DNA from: a bacterium
GTDB taxonomy: Bacteria; Patescibacteriota; Minisyncoccia; UBA6257; JAUSGH01
Assembly (NCBI GenBank): GCA_030649055.1
Contig: JAUSGH010000019.1
Span: 1,454-65,453 of the forward strand
Direction: 5' to 3'
Length of the DNA stretch: 64,000 nt
This document shows positions 7,502 to 50,337 of this stretch, one piece after another. The first letter of the stretch is position 1; every line of letters begins with the position of its first letter. A model generated the notes under the pieces. The model did not search any database, was not told the DNA's origin, and saw only the letters and a list, made by a program, of their open reading frames with translations. A program made the position numbers and the translations under genes.

Positions 7502-8618
7502 GTCTGTACGACCGGCGGGGCTTCTGCCGGTCAGAACATCGATTGAACCGACCGAACGTTCCGAACTGAATATTAGAAGCACTAAAAGTAAAAAAATGAA
7601 TGTAACATAGAATGTTTCTATTACGGTGAGCTTGTCGAACCGCTGGAAATTTTCTATGTTACCCCAAATCTGTTCCGAAGGTGGGCGTTTCGCCGACTGT
7701 GTGCACTCGTGCACATTCGAGGCGAGCCGCGAACCTTCTTTCGAGGATTTGATCCTGGTCCAGGATGAACGCTGGCGGCGTGGATAAGGCATGCAAGTCG
7801 AACGGTCGAGCGCACGTTGCGCTCGGTAGTGGCAAACGAGTTAGTAACGCCCTGGTACGTACCCCCGAGTCGGGCATAATTCCGCGAAAGCGGGACTAAT
7901 TCCCGATGGTGTCGCCTTAGGCGACTAAAGGAGCGATTCGCTCGGGGAGCGGCCTAGGTCCTATCAGCTAGTTGGTGAGGTAAAAGCTCACCAAGGCTAC
8001 GACGGGTAGGGGGGGTGAGAGCCCGATCCCCAACGAGGAGACTGAGACACGGCTCCTACACCTACGGGTGGCAGCAGTCGAGAATATTCGACAATGGGCG
8101 AAAGCCTGATCGAGCGACGCCGCGTGCAGGATGAAGGTCTTAGGATTGTAAACTGCTTTTCTACGGGAAGAAGTGTGCGTAGCACACAGTTTGTTAGTTC
8201 GTCAGTTACGCTTCGCTCTAGTTTATTAGTTGGTGAAACTAATTAACTAGCAAACGAACAGCGAGCGGAGCGAGCGGAACTAGTCAACTATGTGCTGCGC
8301 ACATTGACGGTACCGTGGGAATAAGGGGCGGCAAACTTCGTGCCAGCAGCCGCGGTAATACGAAGGCCCCGAGCGTTATCCGGATTCATTGGGCGTAAAG
8401 GGCGCGTAGGAGGTTCGGTCCGTCTCTCGTGAAATCTCGGAGCTCAACTCCGAACCCGCGGGGGAAACCGCCGAACTAGAGGGTGTTAGAGGCAGATGGA
8501 ACACACGGTGTAGGGGTGAAATCCGTTGATATCGTGTGGAACACCAAAGGCGAAGGCATTCTGCTGGGACACTCCTGACTCTGAGGCGCGAAAGCGTGGG
8601 GAGCAAAAAGGATTAGAT

Positions 8619-9690
8619 AAATCCCGTTCCGGCTCCAAAGAAACGGAACAAAGGGTGTCCCCTCCGACGGCGACGTCGGGGTGCGCATTCAGCTATATCG
8701 GGGAAGGCCGTCTTGTCAGGCGGTTAATCCCGAGGGAAGTTATTCAAGCCTCACTTTCGACTCTTTAATTATAGAGAAAAGTGGAGCTTGTGTAACCCCG
8801 TAGAGACTATGTAAGTAAGAAAATAGAAAATGACCAAGTCATTTTTGTTGGATCGATGTAAGGAAATTATTCTGGGTTCTTTGTTGGGTGATGGGTCCTT
8901 AAAGATCTATAAGCCCTACAAAAATGCCCGATTTTCCTTTCGACATTCGGTACATCAAAAAGATTATTTTTTCTGGAAAGTTGAAGAATTAAAAGAAATT
9001 TCCGGAGAGAAATCTTTTTGGGAACAAAAACCGAATAGTTTGGGAGGAGATATGTTGCGATACCAAAGTTTAGCATTAGAATTGCTTACGGAACTGCATC
9101 GGCTGACTTACGAGCATAATTGTCTCGTAATACGTCGAAAATGGCTGAACATGATGACGCCATTATCGCTTGCGATTTGGTGGCTTGATGATGGTTCGCT
9201 TATTGGCAATGGAAAGCGAGGTGTGTTTTGTACCGACCCGTTTTCGTTTCATGAACAAGAGATTTTATCGCAGTATTTACTCAAGGTTTGGAAAGTAAAA
9301 ACTGCGATTGGAAAAATTGTCCGCGAGCGGGAAGGAAAAAAAGTTGAGTACTATCGGCTATGGATTCGTTCAAGCGAAGAATTAAAAAAATTTCTTCGGA
9401 TAATCCTCCCCGAAATACCATCCGCATCTACATTGCCTAAAGTTCTTATTCTTTACAAAGATTCCCAATTACAGCAACGCTGGGTTTCTGAAGTTGTTGA
9501 AGCAACGCATTTTTCTCGAGAGATTATTGAAAGGTATCTTGCTGAGAAAAAAGCGAAATATAAGCGATTTCAGAAAATGATATAGTCCGATCCTCCGAGT
9601 AATCGGAGCATCTAATAGGTCTAAATCCCTAACGCTTAGGAATTAGGATTTAGAAATTAGAAATTGCAATTTTGCCAAGCAAAATTGTTG
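8619..9690 (+). mobile_element. group I intron in 16S rRNA (inserted after GGAUUAGAU, ends with G before ACCCUUGUAGUCC) carrying a homing endonuclease ORF
   Basis: Exon sequence diverges from the universal 16S at 8619 and resumes at 9691. The intron ends in G. Boundaries are accurate to about 1 nt. Confidence 0.75.
8830..9585 (+). CDS. LAGLIDADG homing endonuclease (two-motif, single-chain) encoded within the 16S intron
   Basis: ILGSLLGDGSL and AIWWLDDGSLIG motifs. Low-GC ORF inside the rRNA gene. Confidence 0.8.
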   Translation: MTKSFLLDRCKEIILGSLLGDGSLKIYKPYKNARFSFRHSVHQKDYFFWKVEELKEISGEKSFWEQKPNSLGGDMLRYQSLALELLTELHRLTYEHNCLVIRRKWLNMMTPLSLAIWWLDDGSLIGNGKRGVFCTDPFSFHEQEILSQYLLKVWKVKTAIGKIVREREGKKVEYYRLWIRSSEELKKFLRIILPEIPSASTLPKVLILYKDSQLQQRWVSEVVEATHFSREIIERYLAEKKAKYKRFQKMI

Positions 9691-9786
9691 ACCCTTGTAG
9701 TCCACGCCCTAAACGATGCTGATTAGCTGTCTCGAGTATCGACCCTCGGGGTGGCGTAGCTAACGCGTTAAATCAGCCGCCTGGGA

Positions 9787-9818
<32 letters not shown>

Positions 9819-9829
9819 AGACGGGGACT

Positions 9830-9864
<35 letters not shown>

Positions 9865-9942
9865 GTAAGCGAAGAACCTTACCAGGGCTTGAAATGCACT
9901 TGAAGACCGGCAGAAACGTCGGTCGTCTCTCAAGGACAAGTG

Positions 9943-9973
<31 letters not shown>

Positions 9974-10828
9974 ATCGTGAGACGTTCCCTTAAGTGGGGT
10001 AACGAGCGCAACCCCTCTCTGGTGTTATAAGTGTCACCGGAAACCGCCCCCGTTTTTGCCCGCAAGCAATGAAATGCTTGTGTTCAAAAACGGGGGAGGA
10101 AGGCGGGGATGACGTCAAATCCGCATGGCCCTCTGATGCCCTGGGCCACACACGTGCTACAATGGCCGTTACAAAGGGTTGCCAAGCCGCAAGGCGGAGC
10201 TAATCCCAAAAACACGGCCCCAGTTCAGATTGGAGGCTGCAACTCGCCTCCATGAAGTTGGAATCGCTAGTAATCGTAGGTCAGCTACACTACGGTGAAT
10301 ACGTTCTCGAGTCCTGTACTCACCGCCCGTCAAGCCAGCGGAGTCGGTAATACCTGAAGCCCAGCACTTTGTTCGCAACGCAGTTGTTAACAAAGTGCTG
10401 GGTAAGGGTAGGATCGATGATGAGGGCTAAGTCGTAACAAGGCACGCGTAGCGGAAGCTGTGCGTGGATCATCTACATAAACTTCTATAATTTTTGTTAT
10501 AGAACATAATAGATCGGAGCGCGTCGAAAGGCGCGCGTATGGCGTTCGTCGATGAGCCAAAAGTCTCGACGCGGACTTGCTTTCTGATGAAGCAAGGTTG
10601 GGATAACGCAAAAGTTTTTGATCCTTAGTTTTTACAAAAAATGCGAATGAGGCATTGCGCTCTCTTTCGCGTTTTTTGGTTGTCGTGTAACATAGAATAC
10701 ATGCCCCGTGCTACAACTTCGATGGCGCATAAGCGCGTAGAGATAGGCGAAGTCGGCGCGGAACAAGAGATGCTCTTAACATCAACGACAACCCATTATC
10801 AACATCAATCGAAGTTGTAGCACAGGGT

Positions 10829-23927: not shown

Positions 23928-25160
23928 ATGAAATCGCGATTCATCGTCGGGTTGGACATCGGATCGCTCGCCATCAAAGCTGCCGTGCTCGAACAAAAGA
24001 GCGACGGTAGCTTAGTGTTGCAATACGCGACTAAAGCTCCGGTGGAAGGTATGCGCAAAGGAATGGTGGATGACTTGGGCGCGGTGACGCGGTCGGTCAA
24101 CGTCGTCTTGGCGGATATTCGGCAAATCCACAAAAACGCGGCAAAACATATTTACCTCAGCATCGGCACGCCGAACGTCCGCGTGCAGATATCTAAGGGA
24201 ATCGTCGCTGTTTCCCGCGCGGATTTTGAAATTTTTAATGATGACATCGGGCACGCGATTGAAGCGGCGGAGTCCGTGAAGCTTCCGGCGAACCGGATGG
24301 TGATTCACACTATCACCGATGAGTTTGTGGTGGATGATGTCGCGGATATCAAGGACCCGTTGGGCATGATCGGGCATCGGCTGGAAGCAAAAAGTATGAT
24401 TATCGACGCGTTCGCTCCGGCGGTGAAAAATATCACGCGCGCGGTGGAGGTCGCGGGTGGTGGCATCGCGGGTCTTATTTTTGGACCTATCGCCGGCGCG
24501 CGGTCGGTGTTCAGTAAAAATCAGCGGGAGCTCGGCACGGTACTTCTTGACATCGGATTCAGCACCACGGGCATCGCGCTGTATCAGGAGCACAAACTGC
24601 TACATACGAATATTTTTCCGTATGGCTCTGGCCATATTACCAATGACCTGACGCACGGACTTAAAATTTCCGTGGAAGCCGCGGAGGGAGTGAAGCTTGC
24701 CTATGGCGCCGCGTTTGCGAAAGATGTGTCCGTTCGCGAGACTGTGGATATCTCTAAATTTGAGCCGCACGCGCGGGGGAGCATCACTCGGCGATTCATC
24801 GCGGACATCGTGGAAGCCCGGCTTGCAGAAATTTTGGAGTTCGTCAATAATGACCTTAAGGCGGTGAATAAGTCCGGTCAGCTTCCCGGGGGCGTGGTGC
24901 TTGTGGGTGGCGGGGCAAAAACTCCGGGACTTGTTGACCTTGTCCGACAAGAGTTGCGTTTGCCCACTCGGGTTGGCATTCCGGATCTTTCTATGTTCCA
25001 GATTCCCTCTGCGGAGCTTGCCGCCACGGTGGAAGACCCTGAATACGCGTGTGCCCTGGGATTAGTGCTCTGGGGTGTGGATAAGTCCGGCGAAGGAGTG
25101 CGCGTAAAGGGAGATGCTTTCGGCTGGTTGAAAAAACTGGTGAGTTACATCGTGCCTTGA
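23928..25160 (+). CDS. ftsA: cell division protein FtsA
   Basis: GLDIGSLAIKAAV N-terminus, actin-fold motifs, DIGFSTTGIALY. TGA stop. Confidence 0.85.
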   Translation: MKSRFIVGLDIGSLAIKAAVLEQKSDGSLVLQYATKAPVEGMRKGMVDDLGAVTRSVNVVLADIRQIHKNAAKHIYLSIGTPNVRVQISKGIVAVSRADFEIFNDDIGHAIEAAESVKLPANRMVIHTITDEFVVDDVADIKDPLGMIGHRLEAKSMIIDAFAPAVKNITRAVEVAGGGIAGLIFGPIAGARSVFSKNQRELGTVLLDIGFSTTGIALYQEHKLLHTNIFPYGSGHITNDLTHGLKISVEAAEGVKLAYGAAFAKDVSVRETVDISKFEPHARGSITRRFIADIVEARLAEILEFVNNDLKAVNKSGQLPGGVVLVGGGAKTPGLVDLVRQELRLPTRVGIPDLSMFQIPSAELAATVEDPEYACALGLVLWGVDKSGEGVRVKGDAFGWLKKLVSYIVP

Positions 25161-25466
25161 ACCCATCTCAAAAATCCCTCACAGTCGCGTTCGTAGCGAT
25201 TTCCTCGCATCCGCTAGGCGCGAGGAGGAGGTTGTAACCTCTGGGTTACGTCGACGACGAGCAACGCCGCGGGGTGAGGAAATCGCACGAACCCGAAGGG
25301 ATACGGCCAATTCCGGCGATTCCGGCGTCGCTCCTCCTCGGAGTATCAAGAGGATACACCTTCGGTCGTCGCTCCTAGGACTCGCCGGAATTGGCCAGTA
25401 TCGCGGCGGGAGAGATTTTCGAGATGGGTTCTAAAGTAATCGCAAATAATGCGAATCAGGCTCTTT

Positions 25467-25510
25467 AATAATGCGAATGGGCGCATCGAAGCCATTTGCA
25501 TTATTTTTTG
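25467..25510 (+). terminator. intrinsic terminator AATAATGCGAATGGGC-gcgcatcgaa-GCCATTTGCATTATT-TTTTT inside the ftsA-ftsZ spacer
   Basis: About 14-bp stem with one G-U pair, then T6. Lies ~300 nt after ftsA and ~75 nt before ftsZ. Confidence 0.5.
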
Positions 25511-25584
25511 CAGGCGTTCATGATGAAAATAATAGGATGCATGAGATAAATAGCCCCTGAGCTTGTCGAAGGGCTACGATATAT

Positions 25585-26817
25585 ATGAAGCAAAACGGAA
25601 GCAACAAAAAGTCAGCGGCAAAGAACAAGGTCATCCGGCCGAGTTATGCCGCGAATATTAAGGTGGTTGGCGTCGGTGGCGGCGGCTGCAGCGCGGTTTC
25701 GCGTATGCGCGACTCAATGGACTTTAAGGGCATTGATTTCATTGCCATCAACACCGATGTGCAGGATTTGGATTATTGCAATGCGAAAAAGCGCATCTAT
25801 ATCGGAAAAAATTTGACGAAAGGTTTGGGCACGGGTATGAATCCGGAGCTTGGTCGTCAGGCGGCGGAAGAAAACCGGTCGGAAATCGTGGAGTCGTTGA
25901 AAGGCGCGGATCTTGTGTTCATCACTACCGGCTTAGGCGGAGGCACTGGGTCAGGGGCCTCGCCAGTCATTGCCGAGGCGGCGCGCGAAGCCGGGGCGTT
26001 AACCGTTGCGGTGGTCACAAAACCGTTTTCTTTTGAAGGTGTACAGCGGGGACGTATTGCCGGTGAGGCACTCACGAAATTGAAAGAGAAGGTGGACACC
26101 TACATCGTTGTTCCAAACGATCGGATTTTCAGCATCATCAGCAAGGACACGCCGATAATGAAGGCGTTTGAAGTGATTGATAATGTGTTGAAGTCCGCTA
26201 TCTCCGGTATCGCGGAACTCATTGCGATGCACGGGCTCGTGAACGTGGACTTCGCGGACGTGAAAGCGACCATGCAGAATACCGGCGGGGCGGTGGTGAC
26301 CGTGGGCTATGCCGGCGGGGCGGAGCGCGCCACCAACGCGGTGAACGCGGCTATCAATTCGCCATTGCTTGAAACGTCTATCGAAGGCGCGCGGAGCGTG
26401 TTGTTCAGCGTTTCCGGCGGACGGGATTTGCGGATGAATGAAATCAACGACATCGCGAAGGTCATTGTCGGCGCGATTGATCAGAACGCCCGCATTATTT
26501 TTGGCGCGTATCACGACAAAAAGCTGAAAGTTGGTCAGCTGAAGGTGACACTCATCGCTACAAACTTCAACGGAGGCGGAGTGCAAAAAGGAGCGGAAAC
26601 TCCGGCAACCAGCTTGTTCGCGTCAACCGCGGCGGAAATAAAAACCGAGCGGGCCGGACTTGCCGGCGCGACGCTCGCGGCGACGAAAGACATGAAGGAC
26701 GCGGCGAACGATATGAAAAAAGAGGCGGATAAAAACGCCGCGGTAACGAAAAAGAAATCAAATGAGATTTGGGATATCCCGACGTTTTTGAGGAGGAATA
26801 AGAGAGGGGATGTGTAG
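25585..26817 (+). CDS. ftsZ: cell division protein FtsZ
   Basis: GVGGGGCSAVSRM, tubulin signature GLGGGTGSGASPVIAE, basic C-terminal tail with DIPTFLRR. Confidence 0.9.
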   Translation: MKQNGSNKKSAAKNKVIRPSYAANIKVVGVGGGGCSAVSRMRDSMDFKGIDFIAINTDVQDLDYCNAKKRIYIGKNLTKGLGTGMNPELGRQAAEENRSEIVESLKGADLVFITTGLGGGTGSGASPVIAEAAREAGALTVAVVTKPFSFEGVQRGRIAGEALTKLKEKVDTYIVVPNDRIFSIISKDTPIMKAFEVIDNVLKSAISGIAELIAMHGLVNVDFADVKATMQNTGGAVVTVGYAGGAERATNAVNAAINSPLLETSIEGARSVLFSVSGGRDLRMNEINDIAKVIVGAIDQNARIIFGAYHDKKLKVGQLKVTLIATNFNGGGVQKGAETPATSLFASTAAEIKTERAGLAGATLAATKDMKDAANDMKKEADKNAAVTKKKSNEIWDIPTFLRRNKRGDV

Positions 26818-27234
26818 GGTTTAATTTTGTCATTCCCGCCCTGATCGGGAATCCAGCAATTCTCCCTTTCATACTGTGTGCCGCCGTAGTTTTAACGAAG
26901 GAGCAAAGGGAGTGGCTGATAAGCCGGTGAATTTTAAATAGTAAATCCAAAAAGGTGCCCGCGGGCCCGAGGGGATTTAATATTTGTTTTCACCGTGCCC
27001 CCCGTCTCCGGACACCCGTCACCCGACCCGCCCTTTTTGACTCCGCGCGGTTTTCGGCGGTAGAATGGAGAAATTAAGATGAAGCAAAAAGAAAACAATT
27101 GCGATCGAAAGCGATCCCAAGAGAAAAGAACAAATGGTGGCGCCGGCAACGCGGTTGCTGAAATAAAACCAAGACCATTGATTCTTCTCGCAATTTAATC
27201 AAAGGCAGAATCGCGGGGGCGTAGCCCGTCTTAA

Positions 27235-27984
27235 ATGATCAGGATGACCTATCCAAGGAAATTGTATTTAATAGCCCAAATTAAACTTTGGGGTATTCTT
27301 TTCGCAATGGTGGTTTTTTTGTATCTTGATCTCCGCTATTTTTTTAGCAACACAAGTTTTACCCTCAAAACCGTTGAACTACTTCTGGCTACGTTCATCG
27401 GTTATATTTTTTACCCAATACACTCGGCTTTTCAAAAAAGAGTTGACGAAATTCAAGAAAAAATCTTAATCGAAGCAGGTTCCGCAAAGTTGGGATTCAA
27501 GGGGGAAGACAAGGTTGCTGAATGGCTTGAAGAGTCGTTACCGACAGACAAGTATTCAATTTTACGAAACGTTACTTTACCCGAACATAAGTTTGACATT
27601 GATTTTGTTATCATCGGACCTCAAGGAGTCATTGTGTTGGAGGTCAAAAACTTTAGCGATCAGAGAACTTTTATTGAGGATGAATACTATCAGGTTAAAG
27701 ATGGACAGAGATACGTCTTGTCCGTCGATTTCGATCCTAGATTTCAGGTACAATTGCATGTTTATTATCTCAGAAAGTATTTGGAGGATAACGGGCTTCG
27801 CGACGTCAGAATTTTAAAAGCTATTGTTTTTCCTAAAAGCGACGCGGCAAATGTTATTGGAAGCGTTGGCGTCTATATCGCAAGCGGACTTGATGCGTTA
27901 AAGAGGTTTTTTGATGGTGCAACTTTTGACCCTAGATATACGTCGGAACTTCGATCAAGAATCAAAGCAGTTTTATCGAAATAA
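27235..27984 (+). CDS. membrane-anchored NERD (nuclease-related) domain protein, low-GC gene
   Basis: Two N-terminal TM segments, then GFKGEDKVAEWLEE...YSILRNVTLPEHKFDIDFVIIGPQGVIVLEVKN, the NERD pattern. GC is clearly lower than in neighbours. Confidence 0.6.
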   Translation: MIRMTYPRKLYLIAQIKLWGILFAMVVFLYLDLRYFFSNTSFTLKTVELLLATFIGYIFYPIHSAFQKRVDEIQEKILIEAGSAKLGFKGEDKVAEWLEESLPTDKYSILRNVTLPEHKFDIDFVIIGPQGVIVLEVKNFSDQRTFIEDEYYQVKDGQRYVLSVDFDPRFQVQLHVYYLRKYLEDNGLRDVRILKAIVFPKSDAANVIGSVGVYIASGLDALKRFFDGATFDPRYTSELRSRIKAVLSK

Positions 27985-28213
27985 GTTATACCCCTTATTC
28001 ACGCGCCTGCCCGCCGAAAGAGGGAATGGGTGAACGATATTTTTCCGCTTGCGTTTTTTTGAGAAAGTTTCGCGGAAATTTTATGCACACTCGCCGTGAA
28101 GAGCCGAGTGCTATACTAAAAGTAAGGAGAAATAAATTATTAATTAATTTAATCGAGACGAACTTCGAGGCTTCAGCGATGAAGTCTTGAATCATCTCTA
28201 GGGGCCAAAATAT

Positions 28214-46559: not shown

Positions 46560-46660
46560 GGGGTTCTCCTTTCAAAAAAACCAATCGAAGCACCGATCTA
46601 CTATAGCACAAGCATGCGGAAAATGAAAAGCGCTTGGTTTATTCAGTTCGTCAGTCGGCA

Positions 46661-46704
46661 TTAATAACATTCCGACATTCTCAAGAATGTCGGAATGTTA
46701 TTAA
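46661..46704. repeat. palindromic element copy A (TTAATAACATTCCGACATTCTCAAGAATGTCGGAATGTTATTAA)
   Basis: Perfect palindrome. Embeds the TAA stop of the helicase gene. Confidence 0.85.
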
Positions 46705-48431
46705 TCGTCTTTGAAAAGTATGCGGGCGAAGCGGAGGTCGTCGAAGGAATATTTTTCCCGGAAATGTTGAAACACCGGCGTCAATTTTTCGTGTCCGATG
46801 GTGTGAAACGCGGCGTGGATTTCCGGCAGGGCGTTTTTTAATTCCGTGGATATAAATGTGGCGAGTTCTGCTTGCGTCACGGCGCCTTTTTTATAGAGAT
46901 CGGTAATGTGCGCGCAGACCGTTCCCGGCGTGAGGTTCCGGATTGCGGCAACTTCGGCGATTGTTTTTCCGCTTTGAAGCAGCGCATGCGTCATGGCAAT
47001 CGTCGGTTGTTTTGCCCCGCCCCGAGCCCCGTTTGTTTCCATGTTTTTTTGTTTCATTGTTTCATTGCTCGCTGTATTGCCTCCGCACGCGAGAATAAAA
47101 TCCCTATGCGCCGCCGCGGCGGTTTCCGCGGACGTGGCGCTCTGTGCGTGTGCCGCCACAACCGATGCGCCGCGGAATGCTTCGTCTTTCACGAGTATCT
47201 CCGGATGCACCTGAAACGCGCGTTCATTCCAGCCCAAAAGATGCAGTCCCGAAAGTTGCCGCACGCGGGAGAGTGCCACATACCCCTGGCCGAATTCAAA
47301 CACATTCCGTAAATCCATCACCGCTTCGTCCAAACTCATTCCTTGGCTTTTATGCACGGTGATTGCCCAGGCGAGGCGCAACGGAATTTGTTTGATGCGC
47401 GCGAGCGGCCGGTCGTTTTCCTCTATCATCCACTCCACCGGCTCAACTTCAATGCGTTCCCTTCGGCGTGTTTCCACTATCGGGTAACCGTCATGCGCGC
47501 TAAAACCCACCACTACTCCCAGCGTGCCGTTCACATAACCCTCCTTCTGATTATTCTTTGTGAACATCACCGCCGCGTTGATTTTCAAGAATAGCGTTTC
47601 CGGCGAAAGGCAGTTTTTGATGAGTGTAGCCGCGAGCTTCGGCGCTCCCTGTGAGGTCATCAAAAATGAATTTTCGTGACCCGGGAGGCGCTTGAGCATC
47701 TCCGCATTGATGCGGTCTACGTCGGCATTATGCGTGAAAAGTTTCGGCGCGTTTTTCGGCGCGGTCGCCAGTGAAGTCATTCTTTTTGCGATGTGCGCGA
47801 GGTGCGTTTCGTTAAATATGTTTTGCCTGATGGCGGAAAGCACGCCGAGGAATTCCGGGTCATCCTGCCGGTGCTGTTCCTCGAGGTAGCACACCGTGAG
47901 GTTGGCGTCTCCCCAAGCGGTTGAGTCATACGCGAACACCGGCGGGTTGTCGTCGGCAAATGATGCTTGCCCGGCTTCTGCTTCCCGCCGCTTCACAATC
48001 GGAGGAAGCTGGAAAAAGTCGCCCACCAGCACCACTGGCAACCCGCCGAACGGTTCTGTTTTTGATAAAACTTCCCTACATGCGGCGTCTACCATCGTCA
48101 ACGTGTTTGCGGAAAGCATGGACACCTCGTCAATAATCAGCACCTTCGCGCGGCGCATGCGTTTCACCACGCGCTCATTTGCGGCTATCATGCGCAGGTC
48201 ATATTTTGTGAGCGCTTCTTTGATGCCAATGCCGCTCCACGCGTGGATGGTCATGCCGCCGATGTGCGTCGCGGCTATACCCGTTGAAGCGGTGATTGCC
48301 GGCTCAATATCGTGCTCGTGCAGCCAGCGTACATAGTGATTCACCGTGTGCGTTTTCCCGCTGCCCGGCTCGCCGGTCAAAAATACATTCGCTCCGGTCT
48401 TCAATATTGTGAGCGCCTCCTCTTGTGTCAT
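46701..48431 (-). CDS. PIF1/RecD-family ATP-dependent DNA helicase with C-terminal HTH domain
   Basis: Walker A GEPGSGKT, AAA_30-type core, LVGDFFQLPP, C-terminal helix-hairpin region. Confidence 0.7.
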   Translation of the reverse strand: MTQEEALTILKTGANVFLTGEPGSGKTHTVNHYVRWLHEHDIEPAITASTGIAATHIGGMTIHAWSGIGIKEALTKYDLRMIAANERVVKRMRRAKVLIIDEVSMLSANTLTMVDAACREVLSKTEPFGGLPVVLVGDFFQLPPIVKRREAEAGQASFADDNPPVFAYDSTAWGDANLTVCYLEEQHRQDDPEFLGVLSAIRQNIFNETHLAHIAKRMTSLATAPKNAPKLFTHNADVDRINAEMLKRLPGHENSFLMTSQGAPKLAATLIKNCLSPETLFLKINAAVMFTKNNQKEGYVNGTLGVVVGFSAHDGYPIVETRRRERIEVEPVEWMIEENDRPLARIKQIPLRLAWAITVHKSQGMSLDEAVMDLRNVFEFGQGYVALSRVRQLSGLHLLGWNERAFQVHPEILVKDEAFRGASVVAAHAQSATSAETAAAAHRDFILACGGNTASNETMKQKNMETNGARGGAKQPTIAMTHALLQSGKTIAEVAAIRNLTPGTVCAHITDLYKKGAVTQAELATFISTELKNALPEIHAAFHTIGHEKLTPVFQHFREKYSFDDLRFARILFKDD

Positions 48432-48734: not shown

Positions 48735-49241
48735 ATGACCCTCGGCAACATATTCAAGCTCATCATTTCCATTGTCGTCTCCGAACTCGCCGGCGTGATC
48801 GGCGCGTTATATACGACTCCGGCGATACAATCCGGTTGGTATGCCGGCCTTATCAAACCCGCCATCAACCCTCCGGCGTGGGTGTTCGGTCCCGCGTGGA
48901 CAACCCTCTACGCGCTGATGGGTATTTCGCTTTTCCTCATCTGGAAAGAACATTCTAGCATTCTGCAGAATGTTAGAATGTTCCGAATATGGAAAATCGG
49001 CGTCGCGGTATTTTTTATTCAACTTGCGCTTAACACTCTCTGGTCAGTTATCTTTTTCCGTCTTCATTTACTTGGTGGAGCGTTTATTGAAATCATCTTC
49101 CTCTGGCTCGCTATTCTTGTCACTATCATCGCGTTCGCCAAAATTTCCCGCCCCGCGGCATACTTGCTTTTACCCTATATCCTTTGGGTAGCTTTCGCGG
49201 CGTACTTGAACTACAGTATTTGGGCGTTGAATGTGCTTTAA
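48735..49241 (+). CDS. tspO: TspO/MBR (tryptophan-rich sensory protein) family
   Basis: WYAGLIKPAINPPAWVFGPAWTTLYALMG signature, 5 TM. Confidence 0.8.
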   Translation: MTLGNIFKLIISIVVSELAGVIGALYTTPAIQSGWYAGLIKPAINPPAWVFGPAWTTLYALMGISLFLIWKEHSSILQNVRMFRIWKIGVAVFFIQLALNTLWSVIFFRLHLLGGAFIEIIFLWLAILVTIIAFAKISRPAAYLLLPYILWVAFAAYLNYSIWALNVL

Positions 49242-49246
49242 CGACT

Positions 49247-49288
49247 AAATAACATTCCGACATTCTCAAGAATGTCGGAATGTTATTT
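49247..49288. repeat. palindromic element copy B (AAATAACATTCCGACATTCTCAAGAATGTCGGAATGTTATTT)
   Basis: Perfect palindrome immediately after the tspO stop. Confidence 0.85.
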
Positions 49289-49308: not shown

Positions 49309-49968
49309 ATGAAATTAATGAATATATTATTTCAAGATTTTTTCGCTAATCTTTCCGGCGTGTTTCGCGGGCGGAACTTGTATTGGCACTTGCTCGCCGT
49401 TCTGTTGACGCTCGGGCTGGTTCTTTCCGGATTTGATTGGTATTACGCGACTATAACCCGTGGCGGCGTTGTCGCAAAAATTTTATTCCCCGCAGTTTTT
49501 TTCGGCGGTCTTTTGCCGATTATTTTGCCGCTCGTTATCGTGACGCTCGGGGCGGTGAAGCGGAGCGCTTATACCATCCGTGCCGGCTGGGCGACGGGGC
49601 AAGCGGCCATCGTCGGATTACTTGCTTCATTTTTCTATAAAGCACTCACGGGCAGGGCGCATCCGGAATTGATATCGGCGGCGCTTGGCGACATTTCGCG
49701 CGTGTTCCATTTCGGATTTTTACGTGGCGGAGTATTTTGGGGCTGGCCATCTTCGCACACTACCGTTGCCTTTGCCGTCGCGGCGGCGCTTGCGACGCTG
49801 TATCCGAAAAATACATACGTCGTATATCTCGGATTTTTGTATGCGCTGTACGTCGGATTTGGCGTTTCTATGAGCATCCACTGGTTTTCGGATGCCGTCG
49901 CCGGCGCTATTATCGGCATCGTTGCCGGGGTAACCATCGGCAAAAGTTTTCTTAATCCGAAAATATAA
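49309..49968 (+). CDS. PAP2-family phosphatase (undecaprenyl-diphosphatase/phosphatidate phosphatase-like)
   Basis: KALTGRAHP, PSSHT, SIHWFSDAVAG motifs (KxxxxxxRP, PSGH, SRxxxxxHxxxD). Confidence 0.75.
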   Translation: MKLMNILFQDFFANLSGVFRGRNLYWHLLAVLLTLGLVLSGFDWYYATITRGGVVAKILFPAVFFGGLLPIILPLVIVTLGAVKRSAYTIRAGWATGQAAIVGLLASFFYKALTGRAHPELISAALGDISRVFHFGFLRGGVFWGWPSSHTTVAFAVAAALATLYPKNTYVVYLGFLYALYVGFGVSMSIHWFSDAVAGAIIGIVAGVTIGKSFLNPKI

Positions 49969-50002
49969 CATTCCGATATTCTTGAGAATGTCGGAATGTT
50001 AT
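49965..50002. repeat. palindromic element copy C (ATAACATTCCGATATTCTTGAGAATGTCGGAATGTTAT, inverted loop orientation)
   Basis: Embeds the TAA stop of the PAP2 gene. One arm mismatch (GATATT vs GACATT). Confidence 0.8.
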
Positions 50003-50016
50003 GGTACGCTGGAACG

Positions 50017-50286
50017 ATGAAAAATTCAAAACAGCTTGAGCGGCACTTCAAGGGTGCGGCGAATCATTCGCGTATCGATATTTTGTTTTTGATTTCCGGA
50101 AACCCCGATATTACCGTGGAGGGAATTGCTGAAGGGACGCACAAAAATTTTAAAACGGTTTCCGAGCACACTAAGCGGCTGGTTCACGCCGGCCTTGTGA
50201 ATAAAAGCTATCGCGGCCGGAACGTGCTTCATGCCCTTTCGCCGTACGGAATAAAGTTTGTTCACTTCATAAAAACGTTCATTTAA
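50017..50286 (+). CDS. ArsR/SmtB-family HTH transcriptional regulator
   Basis: ORF 49996..50286, likely start MKNSKQL. Includes HSRIDILFLI...DITVEGIAEGTHKNFKTVSEHTKRLVHAGLVNKSYRGRNVLHAL. Confidence 0.7.
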   Translation: MKNSKQLERHFKGAANHSRIDILFLISGNPDITVEGIAEGTHKNFKTVSEHTKRLVHAGLVNKSYRGRNVLHALSPYGIKFVHFIKTFI

Positions 50287-50321
50287 CATTCCAACATTCT
50301 TGAGAATGTTGGAATGTTAAA
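50282..50321. repeat. palindromic element copy D (TTTAACATTCCAACATTCTTGAGAATGTTGGAATGTTAAA)
   Basis: Perfect palindrome with a compensated arm variant (CCAACA/TGTTGG). Embeds the TAA stop of the ArsR gene. Confidence 0.85.
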
Positions 50322-50337
50322 TACGGATTTTAAAATT

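Follow-up and report, generated by a model that had tools for sequence, protein, structure and literature searches.

A probable miniature transposable element with IS5/IS427-type ends on the ftsA stop codon of a Candidate Phyla Radiation bacterium

The spacer between the cell division genes ftsA and ftsZ was analysed in a 64,000-nt stretch of DNA from a bacterium of the Candidate Phyla Radiation (CPR; Patescibacteria), namely positions 1,454 to 65,453 of contig JAUSGH010000019.1 (GenBank assembly GCA_030649055.1); this whole stretch is referred to below as the window, and positions are counted from its first letter. Our comparative analysis indicates that positions 25159-25431 are very likely (probability of about 0.88) a 273-bp non-coding DNA transposon, one of the miniature inverted-repeat transposable elements (MITEs), with ends of the IS5/IS427-group type, inserted on the stop codon of ftsA. 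The assignment relies on the empty site in the closest relative (L014; contigs are denoted here by L numbers), on about 40 copies bounded by terminal inverted repeats (TIRs) among the matches listed, on the copy in L077 and on the fold of the element. An original prediction, made from the window sequence, had described the spacer as a nest of inverted repeats and offered a MITE-like insertion as one of several explanations; this explanation is borne out by the empty site, by the occurrence of copies at loci unrelated to this one, by TA flanks and by TIRs in common with a transposase-encoding insertion sequence (IS).

Results

Insertion at the ftsA stop codon

Both ftsA (23928-25160, 410 aa, with homologues containing SHS2_FTSA/FtsA Pfam domains) and ftsZ (25585-26817, 410 aa, Tubulin/FtsZ_C Pfam domains) lie on the + strand of the window and are separated by a spacer of 424 nt (25161-25584). 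Contigs encoding the closest FtsA proteins were retrieved and their ftsA-ftsZ spacers compared. In the closest relative, L014 (FtsA 93% identical), the site is empty: the contig reads ...ATCGTGCCGTAG|AGTAATCGCGAATAATGCGAAT, with AGTAATCGCGAATAATGCGAATCGGGCTCTTTAATAATGCGAATGGG, the sequence that follows the block in the window, standing directly after ...ATCGTGCCGTAG|. The 47 nt after the L014 stop codon are identical to window positions 25435-25481 at 45 positions, and the empty site has a single TA, located in a TAG stop. The block is likewise missing from L018 and L019 (spacer of 82 nt) and from L020 (96 nt), whose FtsA proteins are 80-81% identical, and the ftsA-ftsZ spacers of more distant Harrisonbacteria and Wolfebacteria measure about 0-215 nt. 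The FtsZ of the window is at most 63% identical to GTDB representatives, with the top matches in Candidatus Harrisonbacteria; scanning of GTDB genomes with this protein accordingly gave only relatives with short spacers that were too distant for judging the insertion. The empty site in L014 and the short spacers in the relatives thus argue that 25159-25431 was inserted in the lineage of the window.

In the relatives, a TAG or TAA stop at this point is directly followed by (G)AGTAATCGC, which gives an ancestral sequence ...GTGCCT TAA/TAG AGTAATCGC... The window junctions read ...CCT T[GAACCC...GGGTTC]TAAAGT..., so that the element is flanked by TA on the right (25432-25433) and by only a single T (25158) on the left. 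The present ftsA stop codon, TGA (25158-25160), is a chimera of this host T and the first bases of the element, GA, and the right TA together with position 25434 constitutes the former ftsA stop TAA (25432-25434). The FtsA C-terminus (...VSYIVP, 410 residues) is intact despite the insertion, as compared with L014. Comparison with the relatives identifies the target TA as the first two bases of the ftsA stop codon. An element entering there would be expected to yield ...CCT TA[GAACCC...GGGTTC]TA AAGT..., where TA and the first G of the element re-create a TAG stop, and comparison with the relatives suggests that later loss of one A from the left duplication produced the TGA stop. The element would thereby be placed in the 3' untranslated region (UTR) of ftsA, upstream of an older terminator, and would probably be co-transcribed with ftsA. 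Its most likely effect on ftsA/ftsZ expression is none beyond a longer ftsA 3' UTR.

Differing insertions recur in the ftsA-ftsZ spacer of close relatives, which makes it a hot spot. Tandem heptamer/octamer repeats of the GGTTNGA type are located directly after the ftsA stop in L016 (4234-4298) and L017 (2272-2336), and the contigs break there. Larger, GC-rich hairpins with GCCTGCC/GGCAGGC motifs replace the small ancestral hairpin described below in L015 (2249-2448) and L020 (1655-1750), and the end of L015 carries another repeat-like sequence, GTCATTGCGAGGAAGCCGACGAAGCAATC.

The element family and its putative parent

The JGI/ENA metagenome contigs were scanned for the two-end consensus GAACCCATCTCRAAAATC (18-nt end), which the 18-nt ends of the window element match exactly. 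At least 120 stretches matched; by a rough estimate, about this number of lone 17-base matches is expected by chance. Among the matches listed, about 40 loci carry GAACCCATCTCRAAAATC as an inverted pair with 54-275 nt between the ends, and they fall into size classes of about 60, 74, 160 (the commonest), 166, 193, 225 and 263-275 nt. The family copies among these matches show TA outside the left end in 27 of 41 cases and outside the right end in 30 of 41, with Y at position -3 in 23 of the 27 and R at position +3 in 24 of the 30. The TA flanks and the Y/R bias beyond them thus point to a YTAR target with duplication of the TA. As judged from the family, a transposase supplied in trans would bind both ends and cut out or copy the element, and insertion would occur at the TA within YTAR and duplicate it.

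The stop codon of an open reading frame (ORF) of at least 150 aa is touched by 14 of the 41 copies, usually as TA+G, compared with 13% of the YTAR sites that these contigs contain outside long ORFs. Target preference together with the survival of harmless insertions would explain this abutment. The YTAR/TA target and the 5'-G end permit insertion into TAA or TAG stops with the protein unchanged, and protein-neutral insertion of this kind may account for the third of copies that abut stops.

A close copy was found in L077 (5200-5474, 275 nt), where the interior is 88.7% identical to that of the window element. It is located 133 nt upstream of typA/bipA, and the TypA protein of this contig is 91% identical to proteins of Harrisonbacteria metagenome-assembled genomes. 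Judged by these identities, the L077 copy belongs to the subfamily of the window element but occupies another locus, in a host that is related (Harrisonbacteria-like). Three more insertion sites, occupied by a divergent subfamily, are present in L072, L087 and L044, and a single metagenome can yield several family copies, as in eleven contigs of Ga0209542 (unbinned). A scan of viral contigs with the TIR pattern gave six lone matches with no partner and no TA flank, which is chance level, and a scan with the internal motif gave zero matches. No further copies were harvested by a protein-database search with the 56-aa pseudo-ORF of the element, and a full-text literature search for the TIR sequence returned unrelated primer matches only.

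Two further observations concern the make-up and spread of the family. The 193-nt class (L034, L137) corresponds to the 160-nt class (L065, L092) with an added 33-nt GC-rich interior hairpin, CCCGCCTCGCCGAAGACGGCGAG..GAGGCGGG, which suggests that MITE interiors may grow by hairpin accretion. The same transposon ends are present in L072 (1447-1718; contig GC 0.73), in L107 (GC 0.62) and in the Leptospira weilii plasmid L147; since these ends recur in contigs of differing GC content and in plasmids of Spirochaetota, the IS/MITE group crosses phylum boundaries.

The outermost inverted repeat of the window element, which was absent from the original prediction, comprises 22 nt with 20 of 22 positions complementary (25159-25180 and 25410-25431) and surrounds all other inverted repeats of the block. 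Its left arm is the left TIR (GAACCCATCTCAAAAATCCCTC, + strand), extending with mismatches to 25188 as a closing stem, and its right arm is the right TIR (- strand reading GAACCCATCTCGAAAATCTCTC), with the closing stem starting from 25403. The TIR motif has only these two matches in the 64-kb window, where 0.17 are expected. The first 18 nt of the left TIR equal the ends of an IS in L102, and its first 16 nt equal the left end of a Leptospira IS (L147).

The L102 element (147-975) is 829 bp long, has the same 18-nt ends with TA on both sides, and contains overlapping orfA (DUF4096) and orfB (DDE_Tnp_1) with the junction at an A6G slippery site. Its ORFs match the NCBIfam model NF033580 (IS5 family transposase) with 112 and 125 bits, the cut-off being 110. 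The IS427 group of the IS5 family has been described as comprising elements of 832-865 bp that have a 2-bp direct repeat and a frameshifted pair of ORFs (PMC3281130, Table 2 and text). By such tabulated features, rather than by phylogeny or ISfinder comparison, the L102 element is assigned to the IS5 family as an IS of the IS427-group type. The best annotated relative of its transposase (61% identical) belongs to an IS5-family IS on Leptospira weilii plasmids (L147), which starts TA|GAACCCATCTCAAAAACC and finishes ...TTTTTGAGATGGGTTA|TA. In L107 (62% GC), a shortened copy of such an IS adjoins a MITE. A tblastn search with the L102 transposase gave no match in the window element and none elsewhere in the 64-kb window. 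The TIRs are common to the window element and to an autonomous IS that could mobilise it.

Internal structure of the element

The repeats listed in the original prediction are all present in the spacer, with its coordinates 1-2 nt off. The first inverted repeat, IR-A, consists of GTTCGTAGCGATTTCCTC from 25189 and GAGGAAATCGCACGAAC from 25276 and has a perfect 11-nt core (25196-25206/25276-25286), from which it extends with one bulged A. IR-B (GGCCAATTCCGGCG from 25305, CGCCGGAATTGGCC from 25383) can be extended to 19 nt at 95% (25305-25323/25378-25396), and IR-C (25221-25230/25331-25340) is perfect over 10 nt. Direct repeats are formed by TTC[CG]G[GT]CGTCGCTCCT at 25320 and 25361 and, outside the element, by AATAATGCGAAT at 25445 and 25467.

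In its minimum-energy fold the element takes the shape of a Y, composed of the closing stem (25159-25188/25403-25431), hairpin A (25189-25292), which includes IR-A, a 7-nt mini-hairpin, and hairpin B (25300-25402), in which IR-B and both CGTCGCTCCT repeats are located. The central part of hairpin A (GCGAGGAGGAG/CGACGACGAGC) is conserved in sequence and alternates G-C pairs with tandem G.A/A.G mismatches at a 3-nt period; this core is kept in L077, L072 and L087, and the flanking stems differ. Hairpins A and B are homologous as reverse complements of each other, and because of this relation the element is also able to fold as a rod in which its left half pairs with its right half. The arms of IR-C belong to separate hairpins in the minimum-energy fold and pair with each other as a part of the rod. 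The predicted energies are -147.5 kcal/mol for the Y and -127.7 kcal/mol for the rod. The region 25150-25520 folds at -178 kcal/mol on the + strand, compared with -123 +/- 5 kcal/mol for shuffled sequences (z = -11.2; 0 of 100 shuffles as good), and reaches z = -9.2 on the - strand; the 273-nt element alone gives z of about -11 on both strands.

A search of 5.8 billion proteins gave no homologue of the longest ORF inside the element (56 aa, - strand). Rfam searches revealed nothing relevant at the gathering threshold over the whole window, nor at E values up to 10 over 25000-25750. The lack of a homologue for this ORF and of an Rfam match indicates that the element is non-coding and is not a known RNA.

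Dense pairing is shared across the family. All family members have z values from -4 to -14 on both strands, all size classes (60-275 nt) are near-palindromic, and the Y architecture is kept in L072, a 73%-GC contig, with 93% of cells paired. In the comparison of the window subfamily with L072, both partners differ in 21 pairs, whereas shuffles give 8.1 +/- 2.2 such pairs (0/500) and slid controls 0-8. The covariation is one of conserved architecture with selection unproven, since two independent palindromes, once aligned, give apparent compensation. Parallel GC drift alone was rejected as a source of the "compensatory" changes, as many of the double changes are transversions.

In the 160-nt class (L057, L095, L108 and L117 versus L040, L065 and L116) one strand folds 10-20 kcal/mol better and has more G.U pairs, and it is consistently the same strand relative to the element's own orientation. 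When the better strand was compared with the direction of transcription of the abutting gene in this class, two copies agreed and three disagreed, which gives no support for selection at the RNA level. The strand asymmetry was probably inherited from a master copy.

The ancestral hairpin and predicted terminator

Between the element and ftsZ, two smaller structures are located on the + strand. A small hairpin, TCGCA-AATAA-TGCGA (25440-25454), recognized in the fold and present in L014, overlaps the first AATAATGCGAAT copy (25445-25456). The intrinsic-terminator-like hairpin (25467-25509), one of the features named in the original prediction, pairs 25467-25480 with 25492-25505 (13 of 14 positions) around an 11-nt loop and ends in T6 (25504-25509). 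It is located 35 nt past the element and 75 nt before the ftsZ ATG. Its predicted energy is -17.3 kcal/mol (z = -3.1), its A/U-rich 14-bp stem contains five G-C pairs, and a simple terminator scan did not call it, the loop being longer than 8 nt.

The earlier description of the repeat nest as closing with a terminator of its own does not hold, as the terminator lies outside the element and is older. L015 (FtsA 83% identical), which has no MITE, carries identical terminator arms with a different loop and T7, and L014 shows the 5' arm of the terminator before the contig ends. From these comparisons, the predicted ftsA terminator predates the MITE and is separate from it. The duplicated AATAATGCGAAT motif is likewise ancestral and is kept in relatives.

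Source contig and neighbouring features

The bacterial small-subunit rRNA model (1533 positions) aligns end to end with the 16S rRNA gene of the window (7737-10479) over 2743 nt, with about 1.2 kb of inserted sequence, and an ORF within this insertion (8830-9585, + strand) matches the LAGLIDADG_2 homing endonuclease (E = 2e-34). The 16S insertion resembles the homing-endonuclease-bearing rRNA introns that are typical of CPR bacteria. Downstream of ftsZ, a gene with a nuclease-related NERD domain (27235-27984, + strand) is located between ftsZ and a ribonucleotide reductase gene, in a low-GC stretch (27001-28000, GC 0.41). In L018 and L019 the reductase gene directly follows ftsZ with no gene between, and the NERD-domain gene looks like a second lineage-specific insertion beside the division genes.

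Further along the window, a near-identical perfect palindrome of 40-46 bp with a 2-nt loop (AATAACATTCCGACATTCT/AGAATGTCGGAATGTTATT) occurs five times within 4 kb (46660-46705, 48948-48983, 49247-49288, 49965-50002 and 50281-50322), and its copies either overlap the ends of long ORFs or are located at them. Possible readings are a repetitive extragenic palindromic (REP)-like repeat, an operator shared among the sites and a terminator that acts in both directions; the palindrome has no relation to the MITE.

Discussion

Several observations weigh against the interpretation of the block as a MITE of the IS427 type. The left target-site duplication of the window copy is T instead of TA, which leaves this hallmark incomplete. 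The 64-kb window holds one copy only, a search for others having found none elsewhere in it, and no transposase. The interior of the element is unrelated to the interior of the IS, and the element is consequently not a simple deletion derivative but a MITE that has the ends of the IS only. Finally, the conservation of structure exceeds any known need of a DDE transposase, and a second function is possible.

One rival explanation is that the MITE carries a functional RNA. Once transcribed, here within the ftsA 3' UTR, a Y-shaped molecule with a conserved GA-mismatch helix would stabilise the mRNA, be processed by RNase III or bind a protein, and the spread of the family would rewire the expression of neighbouring genes, including the ratio of ftsA to ftsZ. 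The very stable fold (z of about -11), the architecture common to hosts of 53% and 73% GC with 21 pairs changed on both sides and many double transversions, and the irregular core GCGAGGAGGAG/CGACGACGAGC conserved between variable stems are all in agreement with such an RNA, and a precedent exists in the Correia elements of Neisseria, which are co-transcribed and cleaved by RNase III. However, the two strands of the element fold alike (-147.5 versus -146.5 kcal/mol), and hairpin B, being the reverse complement of hairpin A, places the GA motif on opposite strands. Copies are found in both 3' and 5' gene contexts, with the L077 copy upstream of typA, the better strand of the 160-nt class agrees with the abutting gene in two cases and disagrees in three, and alignment of independent palindromes automatically generates "compensatory" pairs. 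We therefore consider an RNA-level function improbable. The proposal of an independent small RNA in the original prediction is not supported: no Rfam match and no promoter-like site on the + strand of the spacer were found, and relatives whose FtsA is 80-93% identical lack the block at this locus.

Regulation of ftsZ by the spacer itself was also weighed. If the spacer were a transcription attenuator or leader, formation of the T6 hairpin, and with it the read-through from ftsA to ftsZ, would depend on alternative pairings among the repeats. The terminator-like hairpin is located 75 nt before ftsZ, and the AATAATGCGAAT motif, which relatives also keep, is present twice, its first copy being able to pair either in the small hairpin or with the 3' arm of the terminator. 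Yet either copy pairs with the same 3' arm and U-tract, so that both pairings end in a terminator; no mutually exclusive antiterminator was found, and there is thus no antiterminator logic in the spacer. The nested repeats, moreover, are an insertion absent from close relatives and so cannot belong to a conserved leader, and no riboswitch or leader family was matched in Rfam. Attenuation of ftsZ read-through, which the original prediction had put forward, is accordingly given very little credence.

Least credible of all is that the palindromic block is a chance arrangement or an artefact in the form of an assembler mis-join or chimera. A contig from the independent Logan assembly, L013, begins inside the element, its position 1 corresponding to 25221 in an arm of IR-C, and contigs of relatives (L014, L016 and L017) also end in this spacer. 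Nevertheless, L013 is identical to the window over 25221-25600, a range that takes in the last 211 nt of the element and continues past its right end. The flanks on either side match L014, where the ftsA-ftsZ order is conserved, L077 contains a homologue of full length (275 nt), and 0 of 100 shuffled sequences fold as well.

Other classes of elements were tried as well. An origin from the IS200/IS605 type (PATE) was rejected because such elements have neither TIRs nor target-site duplications, and the window element has a 22-bp TIR and TA flanks at the family level. An IS630/mariner origin, which would also involve TA duplication, was dismissed because the transposase of the full-length IS with matching ends is of the IS5 family. 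A retron, 6S RNA, RNase P RNA or a group I/II intron was discarded, as no reverse transcriptase gene is present in the ORF lists around the element and no Rfam signal was detected.

The MITE reading leaves the internal structure to be accounted for. Strand symmetry, the GA motif on opposite strands and the lack of orientation bias in the 160-nt class speak for a structure that belongs to the element's own lineage, arising through selection for propagation or through hairpin-templated repair, and against a host-level RNA function. The data suggest that dense pairing is a trait of the element family and not of this locus, and that the fold either matters to propagation or is generated by it. A bolder view, which we consider unlikely, is that the double-palindrome interior is a functional structured nucleic-acid module carried on IS427-type ends, with a Y/rod switch and a sequence-conserved G.A-mismatch helix common to a Harrisonbacteria-like genome of 53% GC and a genome of 73% GC. 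If true, the module might be a fold-back device that unites the transposon ends and boosts mobilisation, or an RNA that alters the stability of host transcripts, here that of ftsA. Tiny CPR genomes would then host a cross-phylum, structure-selected MITE family that parks preferentially on stop codons.

On the MITE interpretation, the conspicuous structure between two core division genes would be a mobile-element insertion placed before an older terminator and not a division-specific regulator, which removes a false lead. The analysis also documents in CPR genomes a family of MITEs together with an IS of the IS5/IS427 type as its likely parent, and the same transposon ends in Leptospira plasmids and high-GC contigs; no papers on MITEs in the Candidate Phyla Radiation were found in the literature searched. 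The TIR motif can serve as a simple annotation marker and accounts for broken contigs and for spurious small ORFs in spacers of this kind. Short-read assemblies break in or next to palindromic elements, a practical cause of fragmented CPR contigs.

The hairpin at 25467-25509 resembles a Rho-independent terminator in its 14-bp stem and the T-run behind it, located where ftsA ends and conserved in a relative, and differs from the canonical form in its A/U-rich stem and in an 11-nt loop that exceeds the limit of the scan. The Correia elements of Neisseria (CREE/NEMIS) form a class of 100-160 bp with TIRs, duplicate TA, fold into a hairpin when co-transcribed and are often located at gene ends. 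The family of the window element is like them in its TIRs, TA duplication, predicted hairpin fold and frequent gene-end location. It is unrelated to them in sequence and host, and whereas the parent transposase of the Correia elements is unknown, a matching IS exists for the family of the window.

The putative parents L102 and L147 are similar to members of the IS427 group (IS1248, ISPaes1 and ISPpa2; PMC3281130) in their length (829 to about 865 bp), TIRs of at least 16-18 bp, a pair of overlapping ORFs with an A-rich site for frameshifting, the DDE_Tnp_1 and DUF4096 domains (in L102) and TA flanks that indicate a 2-bp duplication. Unlike these ISs, the window element has no transposase and has only the ends in common with them.

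Close counterparts of the window element are MITEs linked to IS5-family elements and having an unrelated interior, namely BrickBuilt and MITE293/700 of Porphyromonas gingivalis and the ATR element of Neisseria, linked to ISNme1 (PMC4596501). Like them, the window element is small and non-coding, with TIRs (nearly) identical to those of full-length IS5-family ISs, no transposase remnant, long predicted stem-loops and copies scattered in intergenic regions. It is distinguished from them by the TIR GAACCCATCTCAAAAATC, by the clean TA duplication of its family within YTAR, by a partner of the IS427 type, by hosts that include CPR (Harrisonbacteria-like) bacteria and by an interior that is a double palindrome (Y/rod) and not a minisatellite. 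The insertion is routine in kind, and it is the host group that is unusual.

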